64,000 nt of DNA from contig CM126230.1 in the NCBI GenBank assembly GCA_052327205.1, positions 17,112,001-17,176,000 on the forward strand, read 5' to 3'. Position 1 is the first letter of the stretch. Every line of letters starts with the position of its first letter. The notes beneath the pieces are model-generated. The model did no database searches. It was not told the origin of the DNA and saw nothing but the letters and a program-made list of their open reading frames with translations. Of the stretch, positions 3,797 through 64,000 are shown one piece after another. Position numbers and translations under genes: made by a program. This DNA is from Somniosus microcephalus. Lineage: Eukaryota.

Positions 3797-3934
3797 GTCA
3801 GAATCCTGACAGCATGCTTATGGGAACAGGCATGAAGGCAAATGGTGCCACAGTAGCACCTGAAGATGCAGAGCCAAGGCTTCACTGTTACTGTTCTGGT
3901 CACTGTGCGACCGAGGAAGGAACAATACATGCAA
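3797..3934 (+). CDS. BMPR1A: BMPR1A coding exon, N-terminal ectodomain (GQNPDSMLMGTGMK...LHCYCSGHC...NNTC); 1 nt short, apparent frameshift
   Basis: Acceptor ttctctataaag|GT at 3796/3797 and donor aa|gtgagt at 3934/3935. Translation matches BMPR1A GQNLDSMLHGTGMK...CYCSGHC, but NNTC lies in a different frame. Confidence 0.9.
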
Positions 3935-11167: not shown

Positions 11168-11270
11168 AACAAATGGAAACTGTTTTGCCATTATTGAAGA
11201 GGACGAAAATGGAGAAATTGGCTTCAGCTCTGGCTGCATGAGGTTAGAAGGAGCAGATTTCCAGTGCAAG
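11168..11270 (+). CDS. BMPR1A: BMPR1A exon, ectodomain ([34 protein letters not shown])
   Basis: atgcag|A ... AAG|gtaag; 103 nt; activin-receptor-type Cys pattern and DFQC ligand-binding motif. Confidence 0.96.
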
Positions 11271-26977: not shown

Positions 26978-27077
26978 GATTCAACAAAAGTGAGAAAACG
27001 GAGAACCATTGAGTGCTGCAAGACCGACTTCTGTAACAAGGATTTGCACCCAACGCTTACTCCAATTTCTAATTCAG
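26978..27077 (+). CDS. BMPR1A: BMPR1A exon, Cys box ([27 protein letters not shown])
   Basis: cctgtag|GAT ... TCAG|gtaag; CCx4CN cysteine box; phase compatible with neighbours. Confidence 0.96.
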
Positions 27078-28553: not shown

Positions 28554-28653
28554 ATGGGCTATTTGAGGGTGATGTCCACCGGTTAGGCCTGCTGATCTCA
28601 CTGATCGTCTGCATCTTTGTCCTGATTATAATCACAACTGCTTTCTACTTCAG
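28554..28653 (+). CDS. BMPR1A: BMPR1A exon, transmembrane helix (GLFEGDVHRLGLLISLIVCIFVLIIITTAFYF)
   Basis: aaacag|AT ... CAG|gtaag; 100 nt; hydrophobic segment; phases fit. Confidence 0.94.
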
Positions 28654-30918: not shown

Positions 30919-31057
30919 GTACAAGGGGCAGGCAGACAGACGGCGCTACAACCGGGATCTTGAACAGGACGTGGCCTTCATTCCGCCAGGCGAGTCACTG
31001 AAAGACTTGATTGACCAGTCACAGAGCTCAGGTAGTGGATCTGGGCTCCCTCTATTG
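30919..31057 (+). CDS. BMPR1A: BMPR1A exon, juxtamembrane region and GS box ([11 protein letters not shown]...[14 protein letters not shown])
   Basis: ttttag|G ... TTG|gtaag; [10 protein letters not shown] is BMPR1A-type; SGSGSG GS motif. Confidence 0.97.
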
Positions 31058-36093: not shown

Positions 36094-36309
<216 letters not shown>

Positions 36310-37049
36310 TAGAATACGTCATACACAGGTTAACGTTATAGGAAAGCTGCAGAGGAGATCTGATTTCTGTGCCAGCATTTCTCACTGGCTGTTGTGCTTT
36401 CCTGAGAGATGTCATACAAATTCACTGTCTGGGTAGGAGTTGCTGCACAGAATGTGAAATACTTGGTTTGTTTTCTTGCTACATCTTCTCCCCACACCCC
36501 CCATTTTGTTTCCTATTATGTTCCCCCATCATTTTTATACTTGTTTTTCTTTACTTTGTCTCTTTCCAGCTACAGGTGAAAGAGATCAGCTTTTTATTTT
36601 TAAAGGCAAAAATGACCTGTAGTGCTCGAGAATGAAACGGCTTTAATCTACAGCAGCTGCAGCTTACTCTGTACCTGTGTCGGGGAAGTCATGGATCCAT
36701 GATTTTAATAATTGTTTGAAAAGGCATATAGGGCAGTGGTGAGGGTTTGTATAAATCATGTGAAACTCCTCCTTTCAGCAGAACAAATCTTGATGCTGCT
36801 GCCTGTTTGTACCTGCTGTGATCAGGGTTCCCAACCGGAATGGGTAGTTGGTCTCCCCAGCGCCGCTGCTGGCGATCCGGGAGGAACCTTCCTTGCAAGT
36901 GCAGTACCCCAGCTATCGTGGCTTGCAAACAAACTGCGTTGTCTGAGCCCTTCTGGTCTCCCAGTTAGTCAGAAACACTGCATCATTGCCCGTTGTGAGG
37001 ATGACAGCATTGGGGCCAACGTAAATCGGCTGGAAACTTTGAGAGTCCT

Positions 37050-38701
37050 GAGAGAGCAACCGAAGGAGGGAGGGAAAGAGCAACACAAACGAGAGGGAGA
37101 GGGAGCAGCACAAACGAGAGGGAGAGAGAGAGCAGCACAGACGAGCGGGAGAGAGAGAGCAGCACAGACGAGAGGGAGAGGGAGCAGCACAAACGAGAGG
37201 GAGAGAGAGAGCAGCACAGACGAGAGGGAGAGAGAGAGCAGCACAGACGAGAGGGAGAGAGAGCAGCACAAACGAGGAGAGAGAGAGAGCAGCACAAACG
37301 AGGAGAGAGAGAGAGCAGCACAAACGAGGAGAGAGAGAGAGAGCAGCACAAACGAGGAGAGAGAGAGAGAGCAGCACAAACGAGGAGAGAGAGAGAGCAG
37401 CACAAACGAGAGAGAGAGAGCAGCACAAACGAGGAGAGAGAGAGCAGCACAAACGAGAGGGAGAGAGAGAGCAGCACAAATGAGAGGGAGAGAGGGAGCA
37501 GCACAAACGAGAGGGAGAGAGAGCAACACAAACGAGAGGGAGAGAGAGAGCAACACAAACGAGGAGAGAGAGAGCAGCACAAACGAGAGGGAGAGAGAGC
37601 AACACAAACGAGAGGGAGAGAGAGAGCAGCACAAACGAGAGGGAGAGAGAGCAACACAAACGAAGAGAGAGAGAGAGAGCAGCACAAACGAGAGGGAGAG
37701 GGAGCAGCAAAAACGAGGAGAGAGCAACACAAACGAGAGGGAGAGAGAGAGCAGCAAAAATGAGAGAGCAGCACAAACGAGGAGAGAGAGAGCAGCACAA
37801 ACGAGGAGAGAGACAGCAGCACAAATGAGAGGGAGAGAGAGAGCAGCACAAACGAGGAGAGAGAGAGCGGCACAAACGAGAGGGAGAGAGAGAGCAGCAC
37901 AAACGAGGAGAGAGACAGCAGCACAAATGAGAGGGAGAGAGAGAGCAGCAAAAATGAGGAGAGAGAGAGCAGCACAAACGAGGAGAGAGAGCAGCACAAA
38001 CGAGAGGGAGAGAGAGAGCAGCACAAACGAGAAGGAGAGAGAGCAGCACAAACGAGAGGGAGAGAGAGAGCAGCACAAACGAGAGGGAGAGAGAGCAGCA
38101 CAAACGAGAGGGAGAGAGAGAGCAACACAAACGAGAGGGAGAGAGAGAGCAACACAAACGAGGAGAGAGAGAGCAGCACAAACGAGAGGGAGAGAGAGCA
38201 ACACAAGCGAGAGAGAGAGCAGCACGAACGAGAGGGAGAGAGAGCAGCACAAACGAGGAGAGAGACAGCAGCACAAATGAGAGGGAGAGAGAGCAGCAAA
38301 AACGAGGAGAGAGAGAGCAGCACAAACGAGGAGAGAGAGCAGCACAAACGAGAGGGAGAGAGAGCAGCACAAACGAGAGGGAGAGAGAGCAGCACAAACG
38401 AGAGGGAGAGAGAGAGCAGCACAAACGAGAGGGAGAGAGAGAGCAACACAAACGAGAGGGAGAGAGAGAGCAACACAAACGAGGAGAGAGAGAGCAGCAC
38501 AAACGAGAGGGAGAGAGAGCAGCACAAACGAGAGGGAGCAGCACAAATGAGAGGGAGAGAGAGAGAGCAGCACAAACGAGGAGAGAGAGAGCAGCACAAA
38601 CGAAGAGAGAGAGAGCAGCAAAAACGAGAAGGAGAGAGAGAGCAGCACAAACGAAGAGAGAGAGCAGCAAAAACGAGAAGGAGAGAGAGAGCAGCACAAA
38701 C
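37050..38701. repeat. Purine-rich minisatellite, unit about (GA)n-GCAGCACAAACGAG, 22-32 bp
   Basis: Dozens of units are directly visible; almost no T on the + strand. Confidence 0.97.
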
Positions 38702-39564
38702 TTAGAAACACAAACTGGGGAAGGAGAGTTCATATCGGCCTGTGATGTGCGCTGCTGTAAAATGTGTTTTGTTCCGGGAGTCAGGCAGCTCTGGTGTTTC
38801 TCTGAGGACTGAGCCGATTTACTTGGTGTTTCTCATTGCGGTCAGTACAGTAGAAACTTCACAGAAGTAGTTTTTATTTAAACATTACTTATCCGTAATC
38901 TTTCTGTTTTGTGTTCTTTCTTTGATTTATAAATTATGTTATTCATCTCACTATAAAACAAAAAGTCAAATGTTTTATTTGGTATTGGTGATATTAAGAC
39001 ACTCAACTAAGGTAAATGCAATAACATTTGCAAAAAATGGGCAAATGTCATGTGGTTAAGCATCACATAAGCCACGTCACATGATCAAATGCCATGCAAT
39101 CAAATCTCCAGGAATACGTCAAACCAGAGTTGGCAACCCTATCTGTGATTGCAGAGACAGACAGGTTTAAAAAAAAAGAAAATAACACTGGGGCAAGAGG
39201 AAACCGGGAAATAAAAAGAGACACACCCAGAAGTGGGCGTGCAGAGTGAGAAGAAAACTGAAGCGAAGGGGAGAGAGAAAAAGACAGGAGCAAAACAGAG
39301 GGGAAGCAGAAGAGAAAAACAGAAGTGGAGAAGGACAAAAAGCAAAAATAGAAAGGGCAAAACTGAAGTGAAGGGTGGAGAGAAAATGCAGGAGGGAGAG
39401 GGAAAGATAATGGTAGCGTGGTTATCATAAAATATGTCCATGACTTTGTAATTTTTACTAAGATATCCATTAGTCATTATTGTAACTAAACCGTGGTTTA
39501 CTCAAAACGTTATCACAAAGTTACAGCCCTACACATTCCATCAGGCCAAGTGCAATGTCAACTA

Positions 39565-40780: not shown

Positions 40781-41078
40781 GATTTATTGCTGCAGACATT
40801 GAAGGCAAAGGCTCGTCGACATGGCTGTACCTGATTACAGATTACCATGAGAATGGCTCGCTGTATGACTACCTGAAGTGCACTGTGCTTGATACCAAAG
40901 CCCTACTAAAGTTGGCCTATTCTGCTGCTAGCGGTCTCTGTCACCTCCACACAGAAATCTACGGCACCCAAGGCAAGCCTGCTATTGCGCATCGTGACCT
41001 AAAGAGCAAAAACATCCTGGTGAAAAAGAATGGAACCTGTAGCATTGCTGACTTGGGCCTAACTGTGAAATTCAACAG
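40781..41078 (+). CDS. BMPR1A: BMPR1A exon, L45 loop to DLG motif ([14 protein letters not shown]...HRDLKSKN...DLGLTVKFN)
   Basis: ttaccag|GA ... AACAG|gtaat; 298 nt; HRD and DLG motifs. Confidence 0.98.
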
Positions 41079-44523: not shown

Positions 44524-44699
44524 TGACACAAACGAGGTTGATATCCCACTGAATACACGAGTGGGCACCAAGCGATACATGGCACCAGAGGTACTAGATG
44601 AGAGCCTCAACAAGAACCAATTCCAGGCTTATTTGATGGCAGATATATACAGCTTTGGCCTAGTCATATGGGAGATGTCACGTCGCTGTCTTACAGGAG
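44524..44699 (+). CDS. BMPR1A: BMPR1A exon, activation segment ([22 protein letters not shown]...)
   Basis: cacag|T ... GGAG|gtatg; 176 nt; GTKRYMAPE motif. Confidence 0.98.
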
Positions 44700-45932: not shown

Positions 45933-46063
45933 GTATTGTAGAAGACTACCAGTTGCCATATTATGACATGGTGCCAAACGATCCCTCCTATGAGGATATG
46001 AGGGAAGTGACGTGTGTTAAATGCCTCCGTCCGACAGTTTCTAACCGGTGGAACAGTGATGAG
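45933..46063 (+). CDS. BMPR1A: BMPR1A exon ([26 protein letters not shown]...NRWNSDE)
   Basis: cctgcag|GT ... GAG|gtgag; 131 nt. Confidence 0.97.
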
Positions 46064-47396: not shown

Positions 47397-47645
<249 letters not shown>

Positions 47646-52357: not shown

Positions 52358-52749
52358 TTAAGATGTTTTAAATAACAGAAATCCACCAAATGTTGTCTCC
52401 GGCGGAGTCCGTTGAACTACAGACCCTTGTGTCACTTCTACCCACACGTGCTGTCCTTTACTGAGCTCGAGGATGGCATAGCCCCAAACCAGGCTGCTGT
52501 GCTGCTGCTTTTTTCTGCTATTCTGAAGCGTGATTGTTTGGTTGCCATCAACCAAAAGATAACCAAGTCCAGGCCCATGGCCAAACTCCATGGTAACCAC
52601 AAACACATAGATGCCTTTGAGCGGAGCTTTGAAGTAATCTTTTTCCAGTGAATAGCCATCTCCGTAGTTCAGGAAGATCTGGTCGAACTTCAAAATCCTG
52701 TTTGTTTCTGAATTGTTGGAAAGTCCCACGAAAAATGCAGCCTGGAATT
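52358..52749 (-). CDS. MMRN2: Multimerin-2, last exon, globular C1q domain
   Basis: ttgtttag|AA acceptor, phase-compatible with the upstream exon. FDQIFLNYGDGY...YFKAPLKGIYVF...TTFGGFLLFKTS* is an EMILIN/multimerin-type C1q domain. Confidence 0.92.
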
Positions 52750-52794
52750 CTAAACAAAAAAAAGAGCAAAAGGAAATCAAGCCAAGCAACTGGT

Positions 52795-53030
52795 TACTGT
52801 TTTTTGTTAGTGCTGTTGGTTGAAGGATAAATATTGGCCAGGACACCAGAACTCCCTGCTCTTTTAATAGTGCCGTGGGATCTTTTACGGCTACCTGAGA
52901 GGGCAAATGGAGACTCAGTTTAACATCTCGTCCAAAAGACAGCGCCTCTGTCAGTGCTGCACTGAAGTGTCAGCCTGGATTATGTGCTCAAGTTTCTCGA
53001 ATGGGGCTCGAACCCACAACCATCTGACGG
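52795..53030 (-). mobile_element. SacSINE1-like DeuSINE fragment next to the MMRN2 last-exon acceptor
   Basis: Reverse complement of the head and core of 53880-54322. Confidence 0.7.
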
Positions 53031-54570: not shown

Positions 54571-54974
54571 AAAAATGTCCCAAGGCACTTCAGAGGCATA
54601 AAATGATAAAAAAAATAGATGTCAAGACAAAGAAGCAGATATTAGGAGAGGTGACCAAAAACATGGTCAAAGAGGTAAAAGAAAATAAAGACTTGCATTT
54701 ATATAGTACCAATCATGACCACAGGATGTCCCAAAGTGGTTTACAGCCAATTAAGTACTTTTGAAGTGTAGTCACTGTTGTAATGTAGGTAGGTTTTAAA
54801 GGAGGAGAGGGAGGTGGAGAGGCAGAGGGGTTGAGGGAGGGAGTTCCACAGCGTGGATCCTAGACGGCTGACGGCTGCCAATGGTGGGCAATGGGAGGAG
54901 GATGCACCAAAGGCCAGAGAGGAACAGAGAATTTGGATGGATTGTAGAGCTAGAGGAGGTTAACGCGATAGGGG

Positions 54975-56590
54975 GGACAAGGCGGAAATGGTGTTAGGGA
55001 AATTGACGGGATTGAAGGCCGATAAATCCCCAGGGCCTGATAATCTACATCCTAGGGTACTTAAGGAAGTGGCTCTAGAAATAGTAGATGCATTGCTGGT
55101 CATCTTCCAAAATACTATAGACTCTGGAATAGTTCCCATGGATTGGAGGGTAGCTAATGTTACCCCACTATTCAAAAAAGGTGGTAGAGAGAAAACACGG
55201 AATTATAGACCGGTAAGCCTGACATCGGTAGTAGGGAAAATGCTAGAGTCCATTATAAAAGATGTAATAGCAGAGCACTTGGAAAACAGTGACAGGATCG
55301 GACAAAGTCAACATGGATTTACAAAAGGTAAATCATGCTTGACTAATCGACTGGAATTTTTTGAGGATGTAACTGGTAGAATAGATAAGGGAGAACCAGT
55401 GGATGTGGTGTATTTGGACTTTCAGAAGGCTTTTGATAAGGTCCTGCATAAGAGATTAGCGTGCAAAGTTAAAGCACATGGGATTGGGGGTAAGGTACTG
55501 TCTTGGACAGAGAACTGGTTGGCAGACAGGAAGCAAAGAGTTGGAATAAATGGGTCTTTTTCCGAGTGGCAGGCAATGACTAGTGAGGTACCGCAGGATC
55601 GGTGCTAGGACCCCAGTTATTCACAGTATATATAAATGATCTAGACGAGGGAACTAGATGTAATATCTCCAAGTTTGCAGACAACACAAAGCTGGGTGGG
55701 CGTGTGTGCTGTGAGGAGGATGCAGAGAAACTCCAGTATGATTTGGACAGGTTGGGTGATTGGGCAGATGCATGGCAAATGCAGTATAATGTGGATAAAT
55801 GCAAGGTTATCCACTTCGATGGCAAAAACAGGAAGACATTATTATCTGAACGGCAATAGATTGGGAGAAGGGGAAGTGCAACGAGACCTGGGTGTCCTTG
55901 TGCACCAGTTGCTGAAGGTAAGCATGCAGGTGCAGCAGGCGGTTAAGAAGGCAAATGGTATGTTGGCCTTCATAGCGAGAGGATTCGAGTACAGGAGCAA
56001 GGATGTCTTGCTGCAGTTGTACAGGGCCTTGGTGAGACCACATCTTGAGTATTGTGTGCAGTTTTGGTCGCCTTATCTGAGGAAGGATGTTCTTGCCATG
56101 GAGGGAGTGCAGCGAAGATTCACCAGACTGATAACCTGGGATGGCAGGAATGACGTATGAAGAGAGATTGGGTCAATTAGGCTTATATTCGCTGGAGTTT
56201 AGAAGAATGAGAAGGGATCTCATTGAAACTTATAAAATTCTAACAGGACTAGACAGACTAGATGCAGGAAGGATGTTCCTGATGGCCGGGGAGTCCAGAA
56301 GCAGGGGTCACAGTCTAAGGATAAGGGGTAGGCCATTTAGGACAGAAATGAGGAGGAATTTCTTCACCCAGAGAGTGGCGAACCTGTGGAATTCTCAACC
56401 ACAGAAGGCAGTAGAGGCCAATTCATTAAATATATTCAAGAAGGAGTTAGATATATTTCTAAAGGCTAAAGGGATATGGGGAGAAGGCAGGGACCGGGTA
56501 CTGAATTTGGATGATCAGCCATGATCTCATTGAATGGTGGAACAGGCTCGAGGGGCCGAATGGCCTACTCCTGCTCCTATCTTCTATGTC
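54975..56590 (+). mobile_element. CR1 LINE, 5'-truncated, frameshifted RT
   Basis: KSPGPDNLHPRVLKE, YLDFQKAFDKV, RPHLEYCVQFWSPY; CR1 3' UTR and tail. Confidence 0.95.
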
Positions 56591-56761: not shown

Positions 56762-59165
56762 TACATAAGAACATAAGAAGTAGGAGCAGGAGTAGGCCAT
56801 ACGGCCCCTCGGGCCTGCTCCACCATTCAATAGGATCATGGCTGATCCGAACCTAGACTCACGTCCACTTCCCTGCCCGCTCCCCGTAACCCCTAATTCC
56901 CTTATCAGCTAGGAAACTCTTATCTCCGTTTTAAATTTATTTAATGTCGCAGCTTCCACAGTTCTCTGAGGTAGCAAATTCCATAGATTTACTACCCTCT
57001 GAGTGAAGAAGTTTCTCCTCATCTCAGTTTTGAAAGGGCAGCCCCTTATTCTAAGATTATGCCCCCTAGTTCTAGTCTCACCCATCAGTGGAAACATCCT
57101 CACCGCATCCACCCGATCAAGCCCCCTCACAATCTTATATGTTTCGGTAAGATCGCCTCTCATTCTTCTGAATTCCAATGAGTAGAGGCCCAACCTACTC
57201 AACCTTTCCTCATAAGTCAACCCCCTCCGGAATCAACCGAGTGAACCTTCTCTGAACTGCCTCGAGAGCAAGTATATCTTTTCTTAAATATGGAAACCAA
57301 AACTGTACGCAGTATTCCAGGTGTGGCCTCACCAGTACCCTGTATAACTGAAGCAAGACTTCCTTGCTTTTATACTCCATCCCCCTTGCAATAAAAGCCA
57401 AGATTCCATTGGCCTTCCTGATCACCTGCTGTACCTGCATACTAACCTTCTGTGTTTCATACACCAGGACCCCCAGATCCCTTTGTACTGTAGCACTTTG
57501 CAGTTACTCTCCATTTAGATAATAACTTGCTCTTTGATTTTTTTCTGCCAAAGTGCATAACCTCACACTTTCCAACATTATATTCCATCTGCCAAATTTC
57601 TGCCCACTCACTTAGCCTGTCTATGTCCTTTTGCAGGCTTTTTATGTCCTCCTCACTCACTGCTTTCCCTCCCATCTTTGTATCGTCGGCAAACTTGGAT
57701 ACGTTGCACTCAGTCCCTTCCTCCAAATCGTTAATATAGACTGTAAAGAGTTGGGGTCCCAGCACTGACCCCTGCGGAACACCACTAGTCACTGATTGCC
57801 AACCCGAGAATGAACCATTTATCCCAACTCTCTGTTTTCTGTTAGATAGCCAATCTTCCACCCATGCCAGTATATTACTCTCAATCCTGTGATTTTTTAT
57901 CTTGTGCAGTAATCTTTTGTGTGGCACCTTGTCAAATGCCTTTTGGAAGTCCAAATACACCACATTCACTGGTTCCCCTTTATCCACCCTGTTTGTTATG
58001 TCCTCAAAGAATTCGAGCAAATTTGTCAAACATGACTTCCCCTTCATAAAACCATGCTGACTCTGTCCGATTAAATTATGCTTATCCAAATGTCCTGTTA
58101 CTGCTTCCTTAATAATGGACTCCAACATTTTACCAACCACAGATGTTAGGCTAACTGGTCTATAGTTTCCAGCCTTTTGTCTACTTCCCTTTTTAAATAA
58201 GGGCGTTACATTAGCAGTTTTCCAATCTGCTGGGACCTTGCCTGAATCCAGGGAGTTTTGGAAAATTACCACTAATGCATCCACAATCCCTACCGCTACT
58301 TCTCTCAAGACCCTAGGATGTAAGCCATCAGGTCCAGGGGATTTATCTGCCTTTAGTCCCATTATCTTACCAAGTACCACCTCCTTAGTGATTTTAATCG
58401 TGTTTAGCTCCTCCCCCCCCCTATAGCCCCCTGTTTGTCCAGTGTTGTGATATTTTTAGTGTCCTCTACTGTAAAGGCTGATACAAAATATTTGTTCAGC
58501 GTTTTTGCCATCTCCATGTTCCCCACCACTAATTTCCTGGTCTCGTCCTCTAAGGGACCAACATTCACTTTAGCCACCCTTTTTCTTTTTGTATAACTGT
58601 AGAAACTCTTGCTATCTGTTTTTATATTTTTTGCTAGTTTACTTTCATAATCTATCTTCCCTTTCTTAATTAATCTTTTAGTTATTCTTTGCTGTCTTTT
58701 AAATGCTTCCCAATCTTCTATCCTCCCACTAGATTTGGCTACTTTATATGCCCTTGTTTTCAGTCGGATACTATCCTTTATTACTTTACTTAGCCACGGA
58801 TGGCTGTCTTTTACGCCCCTTTTTCCTCAGTGGAATATATTTTTCTTGAAAGTTGTGAAATATCTCCTTGAATGTACACCACTGCTCATGTACCATCTTA
58901 CACTTTAATCTATTTTCCCAGTCCACTTTAGTCAACTCTGCTCTCATTCCTTCATAGTCTCCTTTATTTAAGCTTAGTACGCTGGTTTAAGATCCAACTC
59001 TCTCACCCTCCAACTGAATTTGGAATTTAACCATGTTGTGGTCACTCATTCCAAGGGGATCCTTTACTAGGACATTTTTTATTAATCCTGTCTCATTACA
59101 CAGGACCAGATCTAAGATTGCCTGCCCCCTGGTTGGTTCAGTAACATACTGCTCAAGGAACCCGT
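56762..59165 (-). mobile_element. CR1 LINE, 5'-truncated
   Basis: ORF 57457-58380 with GVPQGSVLGP and FADD; tail (TTCTTATG)n at about 56762-56780. Confidence 0.95.
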
Positions 59166-59790
59166 GGGCAGATGCGGGCGATGTTACGGAGATGGAAGTG
59201 ATACAGAGTACATAGGGCTGGAAGCTCAGCTCGGGGTCAAATAGGAGGCTGAGATTGCAAACAGTTTGGTTCAACCTGAGACAATGGCCAGAGGGAGGGG
59301 GGGGGATGGAATCTGTGTCGAGGGTACAAAGATTGGGTAGGGTCCAAAGACAATATCTTCCCAATGTTGAACTGGGGGAAATTGTGGCTCATCCAAGACT
59401 GAATATGGACAAGCAATCTGACAACAGAGAGGCAGTGGATGGGTCGAGGGAAGTGGTGGAGAGGTCGAGCTGGGTGTATGTGGAAGCTGACCACAAGTCT
59501 GCAGATGTTGTCGTGAAGGGGCAGAATGTAGATGAGGAAGAAGAGGGAACCAAGGATAGCTCATTGGAAGCCTCCAGAGGTAATGGTGCAAGAGTGTGAA
59601 GAGAAGCCATTTCTGGAAATGCTCTGGCTATGATCACATAGGTAAGAGTAGAACTAAGTGAGGGCAATCCCACCTGGAAAACAGAGGAAAGGCTTTGGAG
59701 AAGGAGGGTGAGCAATCGTGTCAAAGGCTGCAGAGGAGTTGAGGAGGAATAATGCACCACAGTTACATTCACAAAGAACGATGCACTTAC

Positions 59791-61815
59791 CCTGTACAGT
59801 TGGGATGCTATTTTTGTTGACTGCAGTTGAAGCATTACCATAAATCTCCAGCTGTTTGCCACCATGGTGACTTTGCCTGTGCTGTTTCCTCATTCGCTTT
59901 GAGCCAAAGCCTCCTCGTCCAATACGGAATGTCCCATTAGAAAGGCTGTCAACACTGCCAGTGAGCTTCTGAAACACAGAGATGTGACTTTCAAGAAACA
60001 GTTTCAAAGATGACACGTCTGACTGCAGAGTCTCCACTGACTTTGTAAACAGTTCCTTCATCTGTTCCAAGCTCCGATTGTAGTAAGGGTCTTTGTTATT
60101 ACAATGAGACTCCAGTTTAATTACTTTCAAGTTCAACATCTCAATATCTTTTTTAATGATTGATATTTCACTGGCGTCATACTTTGAATCATCCATCTGT
60201 TGTTCTTCTACTGCCTCATGGTTTGGTTCCATATCTTCAAGGGAACGCTGGTCTCTGTCATCTACTTCTGAAGAGCTTTCCTTCAAAAAGTTTTCTTCGT
60301 CATCAAAACCAATTAATTCCCTACTTTCATCATTTGACCTGTCTTCTTCAAGCACCTGCACCCTCTTGTTGAGGCTTTCCAAGATTATTTTATGGGTAGC
60401 AAGGCCTTTCTCTGTCTCATTAAGGTTTTGATACAAAGTGCTAACAGAAAGCTCCTGGAGCTCTATTGCACCCTCAGGTGTGATCTCCAATATGTCTTGT
60501 CCCAACAAACTCTCCAGAACGACTGTGTGCCTCAAAGCATCTTCCAAAAGGGAACTGAAGGAGCTATTGAGGTATTTGATGTGAGCGTCCATGGTAGTAT
60601 CCAACTTCTTCAAGTGGCTAATTTCTCTCATAACCATGGTGGAATTCTTCTTTAGTATTGTGATGTCTTCAGTTAAAGCGTTGTTTTCTTCTTGCTGCAA
60701 GTACTGGAGGTCCTGGGCTTGTTGACGAACTTGTTGCAAAGCCATGAACAGATCTTGAACAGAATCATTTAAGTTACTGCTCAGGTCCAGCTCTTGCTGT
60801 TTAACACCATTCAGATCAAAGTACATCTTGTCCATAAAGTTACTGGCATTCCTCAGGTTATCAACAACCAAGCCATAATCCACAAGTAACTTTTGACAGT
60901 CGCAAAGCTGGTCATCTTCTAGCGTGCTATACAACCGCCGACTCAGTTCTTGCACTTTATTGTCAAGGTTGTAAAAAAGTTCCTCGTGACCTGAACTTCG
61001 ATGGTTAAAGGAAACATTCAGTCCCAAAAGGTTCTCTGTAAAACCCACACTGGTCTCTTTCAGTTTTTGGTTCATCTCGCTCTTCAGGCCAGCCACCAGT
61101 TGTGTGCAACGTGATTCCTGCTTCTCCGTCTGTTGTTGGAAATCGGTCAGCTGATTTGATGCAGGATCACATAACCCGCAGATTCTCTTTAAATGTGTAA
61201 GATTCCTTGAATGGACCTCAACAGTTGCACTGAGTTGGTCAAAGTCCTGTTTTGACGTTCCCATGTCTTGGTGGACAGCTTTCGAGTTGCACGATGAACA
61301 TGGTTTTGGACCTTTGAGGTCAGCAATCTTTGCTAGACTTTGATTTAAAGTGTAGACTTCTTGCCATAGTCTGTCTTGGTCTTTCCTCATCTCAGCTGTT
61401 GTGTTATCTAGAAGATGCGATTTCATCTGAATCATCTTCTGGCTGCGCTTGACTTTTAGGTCTGTCTCTGTTTTAATCGTAGTTAGGTTGTGGTCAAGGT
61501 TAACCTTCTGAGCATGCAATTCTTCATTTATTTTCTGTTGTTGATCATTCAACATGTTCTCAATTTTCTGCAGTTGCTCTGTGTTTGCGTCCAGTTTTGA
61601 TTGTAACTTAGTGCTGAATTCCTCCAGTTCCCTTTGAGGCATTCGCTGTTTCGAGAGCTCATTAATATTCTTCCTATTGACCTCTATACCTTGCGATAGA
61701 TTGCGCACCATATCGGACAGGTCCTGCAGGCTTTTGTTGAAGCTTGTCCATAAGGAATGAAGGTGCTGTCTCAAGAAATTTTCAATATGAGGCTTTATAT
61801 GAAGCACTGGAAATT
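59791..61815 (-). CDS. MMRN2: Multimerin-2, large coiled-coil exon
   Basis: 2025-nt open exon with acceptor ttttacag| at 61816 and donor CAGG|gtaagt at 59790. Heptad-rich sequence with many N-glycosylation sequons and a basic cluster at the end. No EGF domain before C1q (unlike MMRN1), and adjacent to BMPR1A. Confidence 0.9.
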
Positions 61816-64000
61816 CTGTAAAACCAAAAAAGGTTGCATGTAATGTAAAATAAAAGACATTTTAGCTGACCATCCAACCCTCACAACCCTCCATGACATT
61901 CAACAACAGCCATGATTTGCATTTTTATAAAACCACCTGTGTGAGGAAACAGCTCAGAGCATAAGGAAGACTGCTAGATGCTGAGGAAAGCCAAACGCAC
62001 GATCAAAGTGATTTAAGAAGCCTTTAAGAGTAATAGCAAGCTGGTGTGGTTGAAGAGAGTTCCAAAGAGGATGACCTCAGATGGTGGAGCTGGACTGAGC
62101 AGTAACACAGAGGATGCAGAATGGAATATTCTCCCGGGGAACATCAGTTAGATAAGAGGGTTGGGTGTGCGTTAGAGACCAAGGAGAGATTTAAAATTGA
62201 AGACAAGGATTTTGTAGTCGTTGCCTTGGAGGTCAGGAAGCCATGATAGAACAGCGCCATCAGGGATAATGGGAGCATAGGCCTGGTGAGAGGCAGAACT
62301 CCAGAGATAACATTCTAGAATAAGTGGAGTTTGTGAAGGATGGATAAAGAGAGTTGGTGAGGATGGCATTTGAGGTGTTAACTGTAAAGCGATGAAGGTA
62401 TAGATTAGAATGTCGGCAGTGCAGGGAGAGAGGTGAGCAATGTTATGGAGCTGGGAAAATGCAATTTCTCCCAACTCCATAAAACTTGCATTTATCAACT
62501 AACCATGGGCAGCACTAGGGCCATTGACTAGTTTAAATCTACTTTTGTCATGTTTGTATTTATCTTGCGTTTCATCTCATGACGAGCATAAAAGTGCCTC
62601 CGACTGATTACAGTATTGATAGTGCAATAGTGTCGTCCAGTCACTTCGTTCAGTTCTGAATTTGCAGGATTGCTGTCAGACAGAACTGGAAATTTATCCC
62701 CTACTTTCTTGGATGTTCCTGTCCCTCACAACAGTTCTAGCATAAAAAGGTGACCTGAGAAATGAGCCTTCTCTTTTGGTGTTCTGAAACTAGCCACCAG
62801 GAGGTGCAGGAGAGCAGCCCTTGTCTCCCATTCAACTTTTTGATTAATTTTAATAGTTGCAGTGAACACCAAGTGCCTTTAGGTGTCACTGTTCTCAAGG
62901 ATAAAATCTAGTCATCAAAGCTGACAATATTCTCTGTGGAACGTGTCCAGCTCTTTTTTGAATGCAGTGAATTCGCACTCACTGAACTGCCAGCAACATA
63001 GAACCTTACAGAAGGTGGCTATTCGGCCCGTCGTGCCTGTGCCGGCCCTTTGAAAGAGCTTTCCAATTTAGTCCCATAACCCTGCAGATGTGTCCTCTTC
63101 AAGTCTGTGTCTTTTGAAAGTTCCAATGGAATCTGATTCCACCTCCCTTTCATGTTCCAGAGATCGACAACTCTCTGCAAACACGAGTACCTCCAAGCAG
63201 CTACAAACTTCTGTATTTGGGTAATTTGTATTTGGGTCCCCTCGAGTCCTCCCTGATCTATCTAGCTCAAATAGCCTTTGGATTAGACCCGATCTCGGTG
63301 TATTCATCATTTTAAAGACCTCAATCAAATCTGCTCGATGTCTATGTTCTTGAAGTAAAAAGGCCGCAGCTCGCTCAGCTTATTGTGGTAACTCGGAGCC
63401 CTTAAACTACATTTCCATCCAGTGCAGTGAATGAATCTTTTCCAGGACCTCTATTACCTCCCCACATGACTGGACCAAAACAGGACAAACCTTCCCACTA
63501 ATGCTTCCATACTCCGTTCCCAATGCTCCCACACCCCACACCCCAGCCTCCCTCCCACTCACACCCCAGCCTCCTCCACCGTTCTGCCCCACTGTGCTCT
63601 TGTACTCCAGGACCAGTCTACAAATACTATCAACCCCGGTGCCCCCTGTCCCTCCACCATGGCCAAGTACACAGTATCTGTAACCAATCTCCCAGCAACC
63701 TTCAGCCAGGAATGTCCTACCACCATTTTATTCTGTATCCTGGGCTTTAGACATATAATTAAAGGCATCGTTAAATGGACACACAGTAAATATCAGGGCC
63801 GCTTGATTTACAAGTTCCACGCATATATTGACAGTTGTAGAATTCAAAGCCGATAATACCACTTGCTGTCCTATAATACTGTGGTCTGTAACCCCTGAGA
63901 GTCAGTGGTGCTGATGATATACTGTATGTTGCCTGGGATAAAGCGGTCAGTTCAAATCCCACCATGGCATTTAGAAAATTTGAATTCAGTTTAACAAATA

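Follow-up and report, generated by a model that had tools for sequence, protein, structure and literature searches.

What becomes of a BMP receptor when the loop that matches it to its Smads is rebuilt? The accessible text of one review states that the L45 loop of type I receptors sets the choice of Smad branch and that the L45 loops of ALK3 and ALK6 are identical (PMC6953019). The window analysed here, a stretch of 64,000 nucleotides from Somniosus microcephalus (contig CM126230.1, positions 17,112,001 to 17,176,000), contains an ALK3 gene with a loop of another kind. A first-pass annotation had read this loop as four radical changes in an otherwise intact kinase and proposed a lineage-specific ALK3 with altered or lost Smad1/5/8 coupling, acting as a non-Smad, decoy or respecified receptor. 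We asked whether the bases are real, how far the loop extends across vertebrates, what else changed in the kinase and which Smad output would be expected.

Results

A single BMPR1A gene with a rebuilt L45 loop

The window holds the one BMPR1A (ALK3) gene of the Somniosus microcephalus genome; the second BMPR1 gene, BMPR1B, lies on another contig. BMPR1A spans 3797 to 47645 in ten coding exons, which are collinear with those of a shark BMPR1A and in order encode the domains that define BMPR1A/ALK3, namely an Activin_recp ectodomain, a transmembrane helix, a GS motif and a Ser/Thr kinase (Pfam assignments from the close orthologue P0128). No signal-peptide exon was found in the window or in the 20 kb upstream. 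The exons and the sites discussed below are as follows.

3797..3934, + strand: BMPR1A ectodomain exon, in which the assembly lacks one base at ~3918
11168..11270, + strand: ectodomain exon ending in DFQCK
26978..27077, + strand: ectodomain exon with the cysteine box
28554..28653, + strand: transmembrane exon
30919..31057, + strand: juxtamembrane and GS-box exon, with SGSGSG at 31028-31045
36094..36286, + strand: kinase exon with Q233, the glycine loop, VAVK and αC
36133..36135, + strand: Q239L, adjoining R238, in 14/14 chondrichthyans; L or M also in 4/11 ray-finned BMPR1A
36208..36216, + strand: F264P, T265S and T266A (FFTT>FPSA) in the β3-αC loop, in 14/14 chondrichthyans
36277..36279, + strand: N287S (HEN>HES), in 14/14 chondrichthyans
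40781..41078, + strand: kinase exon with L45, hinge, HRD and DLG, bounded by AG...GT
40795..40824, + strand: L45 loop, D295-W304 in mammalian numbering, with K297E, T299K, W302S and Q304W
40885..40887, + strand: T325V, in 14/14 chondrichthyans (position from the exon frame)
41062..41064, + strand: A384T in the activation segment (DLGLA>DLGLT), in 14/14 chondrichthyans
44524..44699, + strand: kinase exon with APE
45933..46063, + strand: kinase C-lobe exon
47520..47645, + strand: last coding exon, stop included

The remodelled loop lies at 40792-40824 on the + strand, in the frame shared with HRD (40990), KSKN and DLG (41050). Compared with the Somniosus BMPR1B exon (L002), which retains canonical IKGTGSWTQ, and with PDB 3mdy, its translation carries K>E, T>K, W>S and Q>W, four changes in 8 codons (40801-40824), just as the first-pass annotation had it. 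Calling all of them radical overstated the case for W>S and T>K, which are ALK1/2-type states, while K>E and Q>W were found in no other loop compared. The description of the kinase as otherwise intact held for its landmarks (GS box, VAVK, HRD, KSKN, DLG, APE and the ectodomain DFQC), but further fixed changes lie nearby. The K>E and T>K codons are each one base from those of Somniosus BMPR1B; the new Ser codon, TCG, differs from TGG at a single base; Q>W requires two base changes. A place in the pseudokinase or decoy class (BAMBI-like, with the kinase domain or catalytic residues lost) was rejected, VAVK, the αC Glu, HRD, N, DLG and APE all being present.

Orthology was assessed in a kinase tree of 49 rows and 306 columns, from which the aberrant P0012 was excluded and in which P0161, P0018 and P0105 were included. 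Fourteen chondrichthyan sequences and bony-vertebrate BMPR1A grouped apart from BMPR1B and lamprey (support 100/99), the chondrichthyans forming one group (100/100) inside BMPR1A (100/99). As neighbours of BMPR1A we assumed MMRN2 and LDB3. No LDB3 was seen within 20 kb upstream of the window; downstream, on the - strand, lies a C1q-domain gene for which database leads were only weak (coiled-coil, EMILIN). Its C1q-domain exon is accompanied by a coiled-coil frame of 735 codons (52361-52969 and 59657-61861, - strand), and from synteny we presume it to be multimerin-2. The intron preceding the L45 exon holds ~2 kb of purine-rich minisatellite with long low-complexity open frames on both strands (36700-38830), and retrotransposon-like fragments, which by their motifs we take to be Penelope-like and CR1-like, occupy 1-1068, 54964-56521 and 56912-58826.

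A search of the genome gave 14 matches: two BMPR1 genes, three genes with an ALK1/2 loop, three of ALK4/5/7 type, and type II receptors. Several pathway genes are present in more than one copy: alongside those three ALK1/2-type receptors, the genome has TGFBR2-like, Smad6-like and Smad4-like genes, two of each (L003-L005, L006/L009, L015-L017, L030/L031). Such extra copies in the TGF-β pathway are described as 2R duplicates in the accessible text of a pathway survey, whose list restricts SMAD6B to coelacanth, frog, python and gecko and has two SMAD4 genes in coelacanth, gar and frog (PMC5979292).

The loop is not an assembly artefact

An RNA run with the same species label (X22), of which ten reads aligned, covers the loop at a mean depth of only ~1-2 per bin and shows no listed difference; in a second RNA run, X21, 0 reads aligned, and run X3 yielded no part of the L45 exon, which counts neither for nor against the loop. 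In X9, a contig of another organism, the L45 exon differs at five positions, all of them synonymous (P ~7e-4 if neutral). The proviso that reads might not support these bases was thereby answered in their favour.

Local sequence quality is the one argument for an assembly error or a decaying pseudogene. Between 3650 and 4150 there are five single-base indels in 501 bases relative to a contig of run X1, one of which is the coding frameshift at 3918. This explanation has virtually no probability left, and for the loop it is already refuted by the same loop in 14 named species and by the agreeing RNA reads. The base that the assembly lacks at ~3918, which frameshifts the ectodomain exon, is present in 4/4 runs compared, and a contig of run X4 joins the 3797-3934 exon to the next. 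The apparent frameshift is therefore an assembly error, the BMPR1A gene is intact and a pseudogene is rejected. Findings of broken genes elsewhere in the Somniosus assembly warrant the same check against reads. At 11217-11234, just before the ligand-binding strand, the ectodomain has IGFSSG in place of the ITLGSG or ITHGSG of other sharks, which could be a true change in the species or the product of two assembly indels that compensate each other.

The loop characterises cartilaginous fishes

The rebuilt loop was present in 14/14 named cartilaginous fishes with the kinase region, the chimaera Callorhinchus included, and absent from every bony vertebrate and lamprey examined. Among 151 proteins compared, 17 carried IE(G/S)KGSSTW, 93 carried IKGTGSWTQ, 35 had other variants and 6 yielded no loop. 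The 17 comprise the 14 named sharks, rays and chimaera, one extra isoform and two unnamed transcripts, and they are all (17/17) of the kinase-region proteins among those listed from two clusters. Eight of nine loop positions are invariant across Chondrichthyes, the third being G or S. The Somniosus L45 exon is identical to a 51-member cluster of cartilaginous-fish BMPR1A (40 members compared, 15 listed); its representative, P0003, has the same L45 exon protein and no kinase difference, and the chondrichthyan proteins named bmpr1aa in RefSeq (Heptranchias, Leucoraja, Callorhinchus and others) share both the loop and FPSA. The claim of a lineage-specific ALK3 thus stands, for a lineage wider than Somniosus that takes in all Chondrichthyes sampled, and the suspicion that the loop might be common among vertebrate ALK3s did not materialise in the species examined.

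Mammals, birds, lungfish, coelacanth and lampreys have the canonical loop, as does shark BMPR1B; two lizards carry H at the last position. Ray-finned BMPR1A departs from it, with IKGTGAFTQ in bichir, IKGTGTFTQ in sturgeons and INGTGASTQ in zebrafish bmpr1aa. The L45 Trp (W302) is lost in 11/11 ray-finned sequences sampled, and in that sample, which includes P0103, P0046, P0161 and P0110, an ALK2-like R266 occurs in 11/11 and S265 in 3/11. Strong conservation of the loop in BMPR1A, on which the annotation had relied, is accordingly wrong for ray-finned fish. Their changes fall on sites overlapping those of Chondrichthyes and arose independently: both groups lost W302 (to F or S in ray-finned fish) and changed T266, and some ray-finned receptors also changed at T265, K297 and Q239. 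Unlike the shark receptor, they have R266 and A or T at 301 and keep Q304 and F264, and their loop still varies among teleosts. Judged by these alignments, the identity of ALK3 and ALK6 loops does not hold in cartilaginous and ray-finned fish.

No earlier description of the shark loop was found in the literature searched, which took in few subscription journals, and the accessible text of a pathway survey covering elephant shark has 0 mentions of L45 (PMC5979292). The BMPR1A gene and its sequences were already public; the loop is a real variant of a known receptor and spans the class.

The kinase N-lobe changed on the chondrichthyan stem

With mammalian and sarcopterygian ALK3 and with ALK6 (PDB 3mdy) the shark receptor has in common the order of its domains, the GS box, the catalytic motifs and, in L45, residues D, I, G, G, S and T; it differs from them by K297E, T299K, W302S, Q304W, F264P, T265S, T266A, Q239L, N287S and A384T. 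In chondrichthyan BMPR1A, 18 of the 306 kinase columns carry a fixed change, and at 13 of these the remaining sequences are at least 90% constant. Of these 13 strict changes, four fall inside the nine-residue L45 (P=2e-4 for the named window, P=0.027 after correction for scanning); for the looser set of 18, the corresponding P values rise to 9e-4 and 0.098. Clustering in L45 exceeds chance, with modest scan-corrected support. The N-lobe holds 9/13 strict changes (P=0.002), at Q239L, F264P, T265S, T266A, N287S, K297E, T299K, W302S and Q304W, and A384T lies outside it.

The stem branch carries 0.065 changes per column versus ~0.01-0.02 within the crown. Chimaera and elasmobranch BMPR1A kinases differ at 8-10 of 306 positions; shark BMPR1A differs from coelacanth at 30/306, and shark BMPR1B differs from bony BMPR1B at 16-17. 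The two splits concerned are dated to ~450 and 420 Mya (accessible text of PMC6238376). We infer from the long stem branch, the few crown differences and these dates that the N-lobe surface changed fast on a short chondrichthyan stem and then froze. An AlphaFold model from a 22-row full-length alignment (pLDDT 36, pTM 0.22) was too poor to place W302, Q304 and F264 in their packing.

Loop residues point to the Smad1/5/8-coupled classes

The reference loops are IKGTGSWTQ (ALK6), MTSRHSSTQ (ALK2) and NKDNGTWTQ (ALK5). Among 150 diverse type I receptors, 94 gave 32 distinct loops and 56 yielded no full loop. In these 32, I at position 1 and G or S at position 3 are BMP-class states, where the TGF-β class has N and D. 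K or R at position 4 is mostly an ALK1/2 state, R being usual and K present in an ALK1/2-type loop. Position 7 takes nine residues, with the ALK1/2 state S in five loops, and in other type I receptors position 9 can be H, E, C or K. E at position 2 (K297E) and W at position 9 (Q304W) occur in 0/32.

The shark loop is consequently not a member of any of the three types. It matches the ALK3/6-type loop at 5/9 positions. From the ALK1/2-type loop, MTSR(N/H)SSTQ, it has SST and, in five rays alone, the S at position 3, with K taking the place of R. Like ALK1 and ALK2, which are Smad1/5/8-coupled and weakly Smad6-sensitive, it is basic at position 4, has Ser-Ser-Thr at 6-8 and, in five ray sequences, Ser at 3, and the receptor has Ser at the T265 site. 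Unlike them, its ectodomain and kinase are BMPR1A by tree and I at 1 and G at 5 are BMPR1-type; E297 and W304 belong to neither the BMPR1 nor the ALK1/2 class. Two of the four L45 changes thus move toward ALK1/2, likewise coupled to Smad1/5/8, and the remaining two are unique.

With four of nine positions changed in the loop that sets branch choice (PMC6953019), a receptor respecified to Smad2/3, or one with both branches active, would be a natural suggestion, and it was one form of the altered coupling first proposed. We consider it very unlikely. The shark loop has 0/4 of N267, D269, N270 and T272 and no ALK4/5/7-class residue (N at 1, D at 3, N at 4), and mutation of D269/N270/T272 in ALK5 removes Smad2 phosphorylation (as reported in the accessible text of PMC9824381). 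The proposed respecification was not borne out, the loop moving instead toward the ALK1/2 receptors that use Smad1/5/8.

The critical L45 Asp is kept. Accessible reports give D263G in ALK1 as abolishing BRE activity, with complex models unchanged by ACVRL1 variants (PMC10419700), and D266A in ALK5 as abolishing signalling (as reported in PMC9824381). An ACVR1 variant at the site equivalent to Q304 was sought in the literature and not found. On the Smad side, all three Smad1/5/9-type L3 exons found in the Somniosus genome are canonical, and no co-evolution of L3 with the shark L45 was found among them. One of the three BMP-type R-Smads (L024/L037; G000 C10) is divergent in MH2, with several changes around the conserved core and a G-S change after its canonical L3 loop.

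Discussion

Our best reading, tentatively held, is that Smad1/5/9 coupling was kept and Smad6 feedback weakened. Coupling would be kept because L45 retains BMP-class residues and the critical Asp and the Smad L3 loops are canonical. The Smad-docking surface of the N-lobe (L45 and the β3-αC loop) would have been rebuilt before sharks and chimaeras split and then left nearly unchanged, giving an ALK3 ectodomain on a partly ALK2-like N-lobe that is still a Smad1/5/9 kinase; retained phosphorylation is what the class of each L45 residue would predict. The nearly frozen kinase and loop count for this reading, as does, on the sequences sampled, the parallel loss of W302 and gain of R266 in ray-finned fish.

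The Smad6 component rests on four residues, R238, F264, T265 and A269, which in work by Goto in 2007 reportedly determine the Smad6 sensitivity of ALK3. The four letters all match mouse ALK3 at those numbers. We take shark F264P and T265S to be changes at two of the four sites; R238 and A269 are unchanged, so that 2/4 sites differ, and by sequence comparison the receptor lacks the full set reported for Smad6-sensitive ALK3/6. T265S is the ALK2/ALK5 state, and the P of F264P is not the ALK2 residue (S). Shark BMPR1B (P0105) retains F and T at these sites, and Smad6-type genes are present in the Somniosus genome. The two changes may have lowered Smad6 sensitivity to a level more like that of ALK2. 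Nothing relevant to these four residues was found in the literature searched.

The main rival and our second choice, which we think improbable yet worth weighing, is that Smad docking was weakened or lost, or that the receptor is a decoy. With docking reduced, BMPR1A would serve as a high-affinity ligand-binding partner of ACVR1-class receptors, or signal without Smads, while BMPR1B and the three ALK1/2-type receptors, possible substitutes present in the genome, phosphorylate Smad1/5/9. K297E, a charge reversal, and Q304W, neither seen in the 32 distinct loops, could disrupt docking no matter which class the remaining residues belong to, and N287S and A384T, the latter in the activation segment, may affect kinase activity. 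The surface is altered in BMPR1A and not in BMPR1B in two fish lineages, and the accessible text of one zebrafish study reports that gastrulae need Acvr1l kinase and that Bmpr1 kinase is dispensable (PMC8054026). The zebrafish parallel is for this reason double-edged for the reading we prefer: in that study kinase-dead Bmpr1aa rescues dorsoventral patterning, acting in gastrulae as the partner of ACVR1 that binds ligand (PMC8054026). Set against lost docking are the intact GS box, catalytic motifs and critical Asp, a near-invariance of the loop across Chondrichthyes that is unexpected for an unused surface, the 5/5 silent exon differences to X9 (P ~7e-4 if neutral) and the ability of constitutively active Bmpr1, its receptor species not stated in the accessible text, to signal in zebrafish embryos (PMC8054026).

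A further alternative, which we regard as doubtful, is compensated structural repacking with unchanged output, in which an aromatic shifted along the hairpin by two positions and the adjacent loop adjusted. F264 and W302 were lost and W304 gained on the same branch, perhaps as one compensated repacking of neighbouring strands, a step that could also form part of the preferred scheme. The variability of positions 7 and 9 among type I receptors fits repacking, as do the lack of co-evolution in the Smad L3 loops and the partial disorder of the ALK2 L45 in a crystal (accessible text of PMC3481300). The concentration of strict changes in the N-lobe (9/13) speaks against it, and the burst then freeze (0.065 on the stem versus ~0.01-0.02 in the crown) suggests a functional shift.

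The loop matters beyond this locus. In the textbook view L45 determines the Smad branch, and here an entire vertebrate class has a third BMP-type loop, fixed along with changes at the proposed Smad6-sensitivity site and offering, with the ray-finned variants, natural, viable variants for mapping Smad1/5 and Smad6 docking on a type I receptor. If output proves unchanged, L45 simply tolerates more than reviews state. The ray-finned changes may bear on the dispensable Bmpr1 kinase of zebrafish patterning.

The receptor is also a concrete coding candidate for altered BMP signalling on the cartilaginous-fish stem. Palaeontology points to a loss of bone in the chondrichthyan lineage, and the stem timing of the changes is compatible with that loss, a link that would rest on a single event. 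An ALK3 rewired at its Smad face, either released from Smad6 or uncoupled from Smad1/5 to capture ligand as a partner of ACVR1, might have contributed to the cartilaginous skeleton of the class, a proposal we judge quite unlikely. Boned ray-finned fish also altered L45, boneless lampreys keep the canonical loop, and a canonical BMPR1B and three ALK1/2-type receptors remain in the Somniosus genome.
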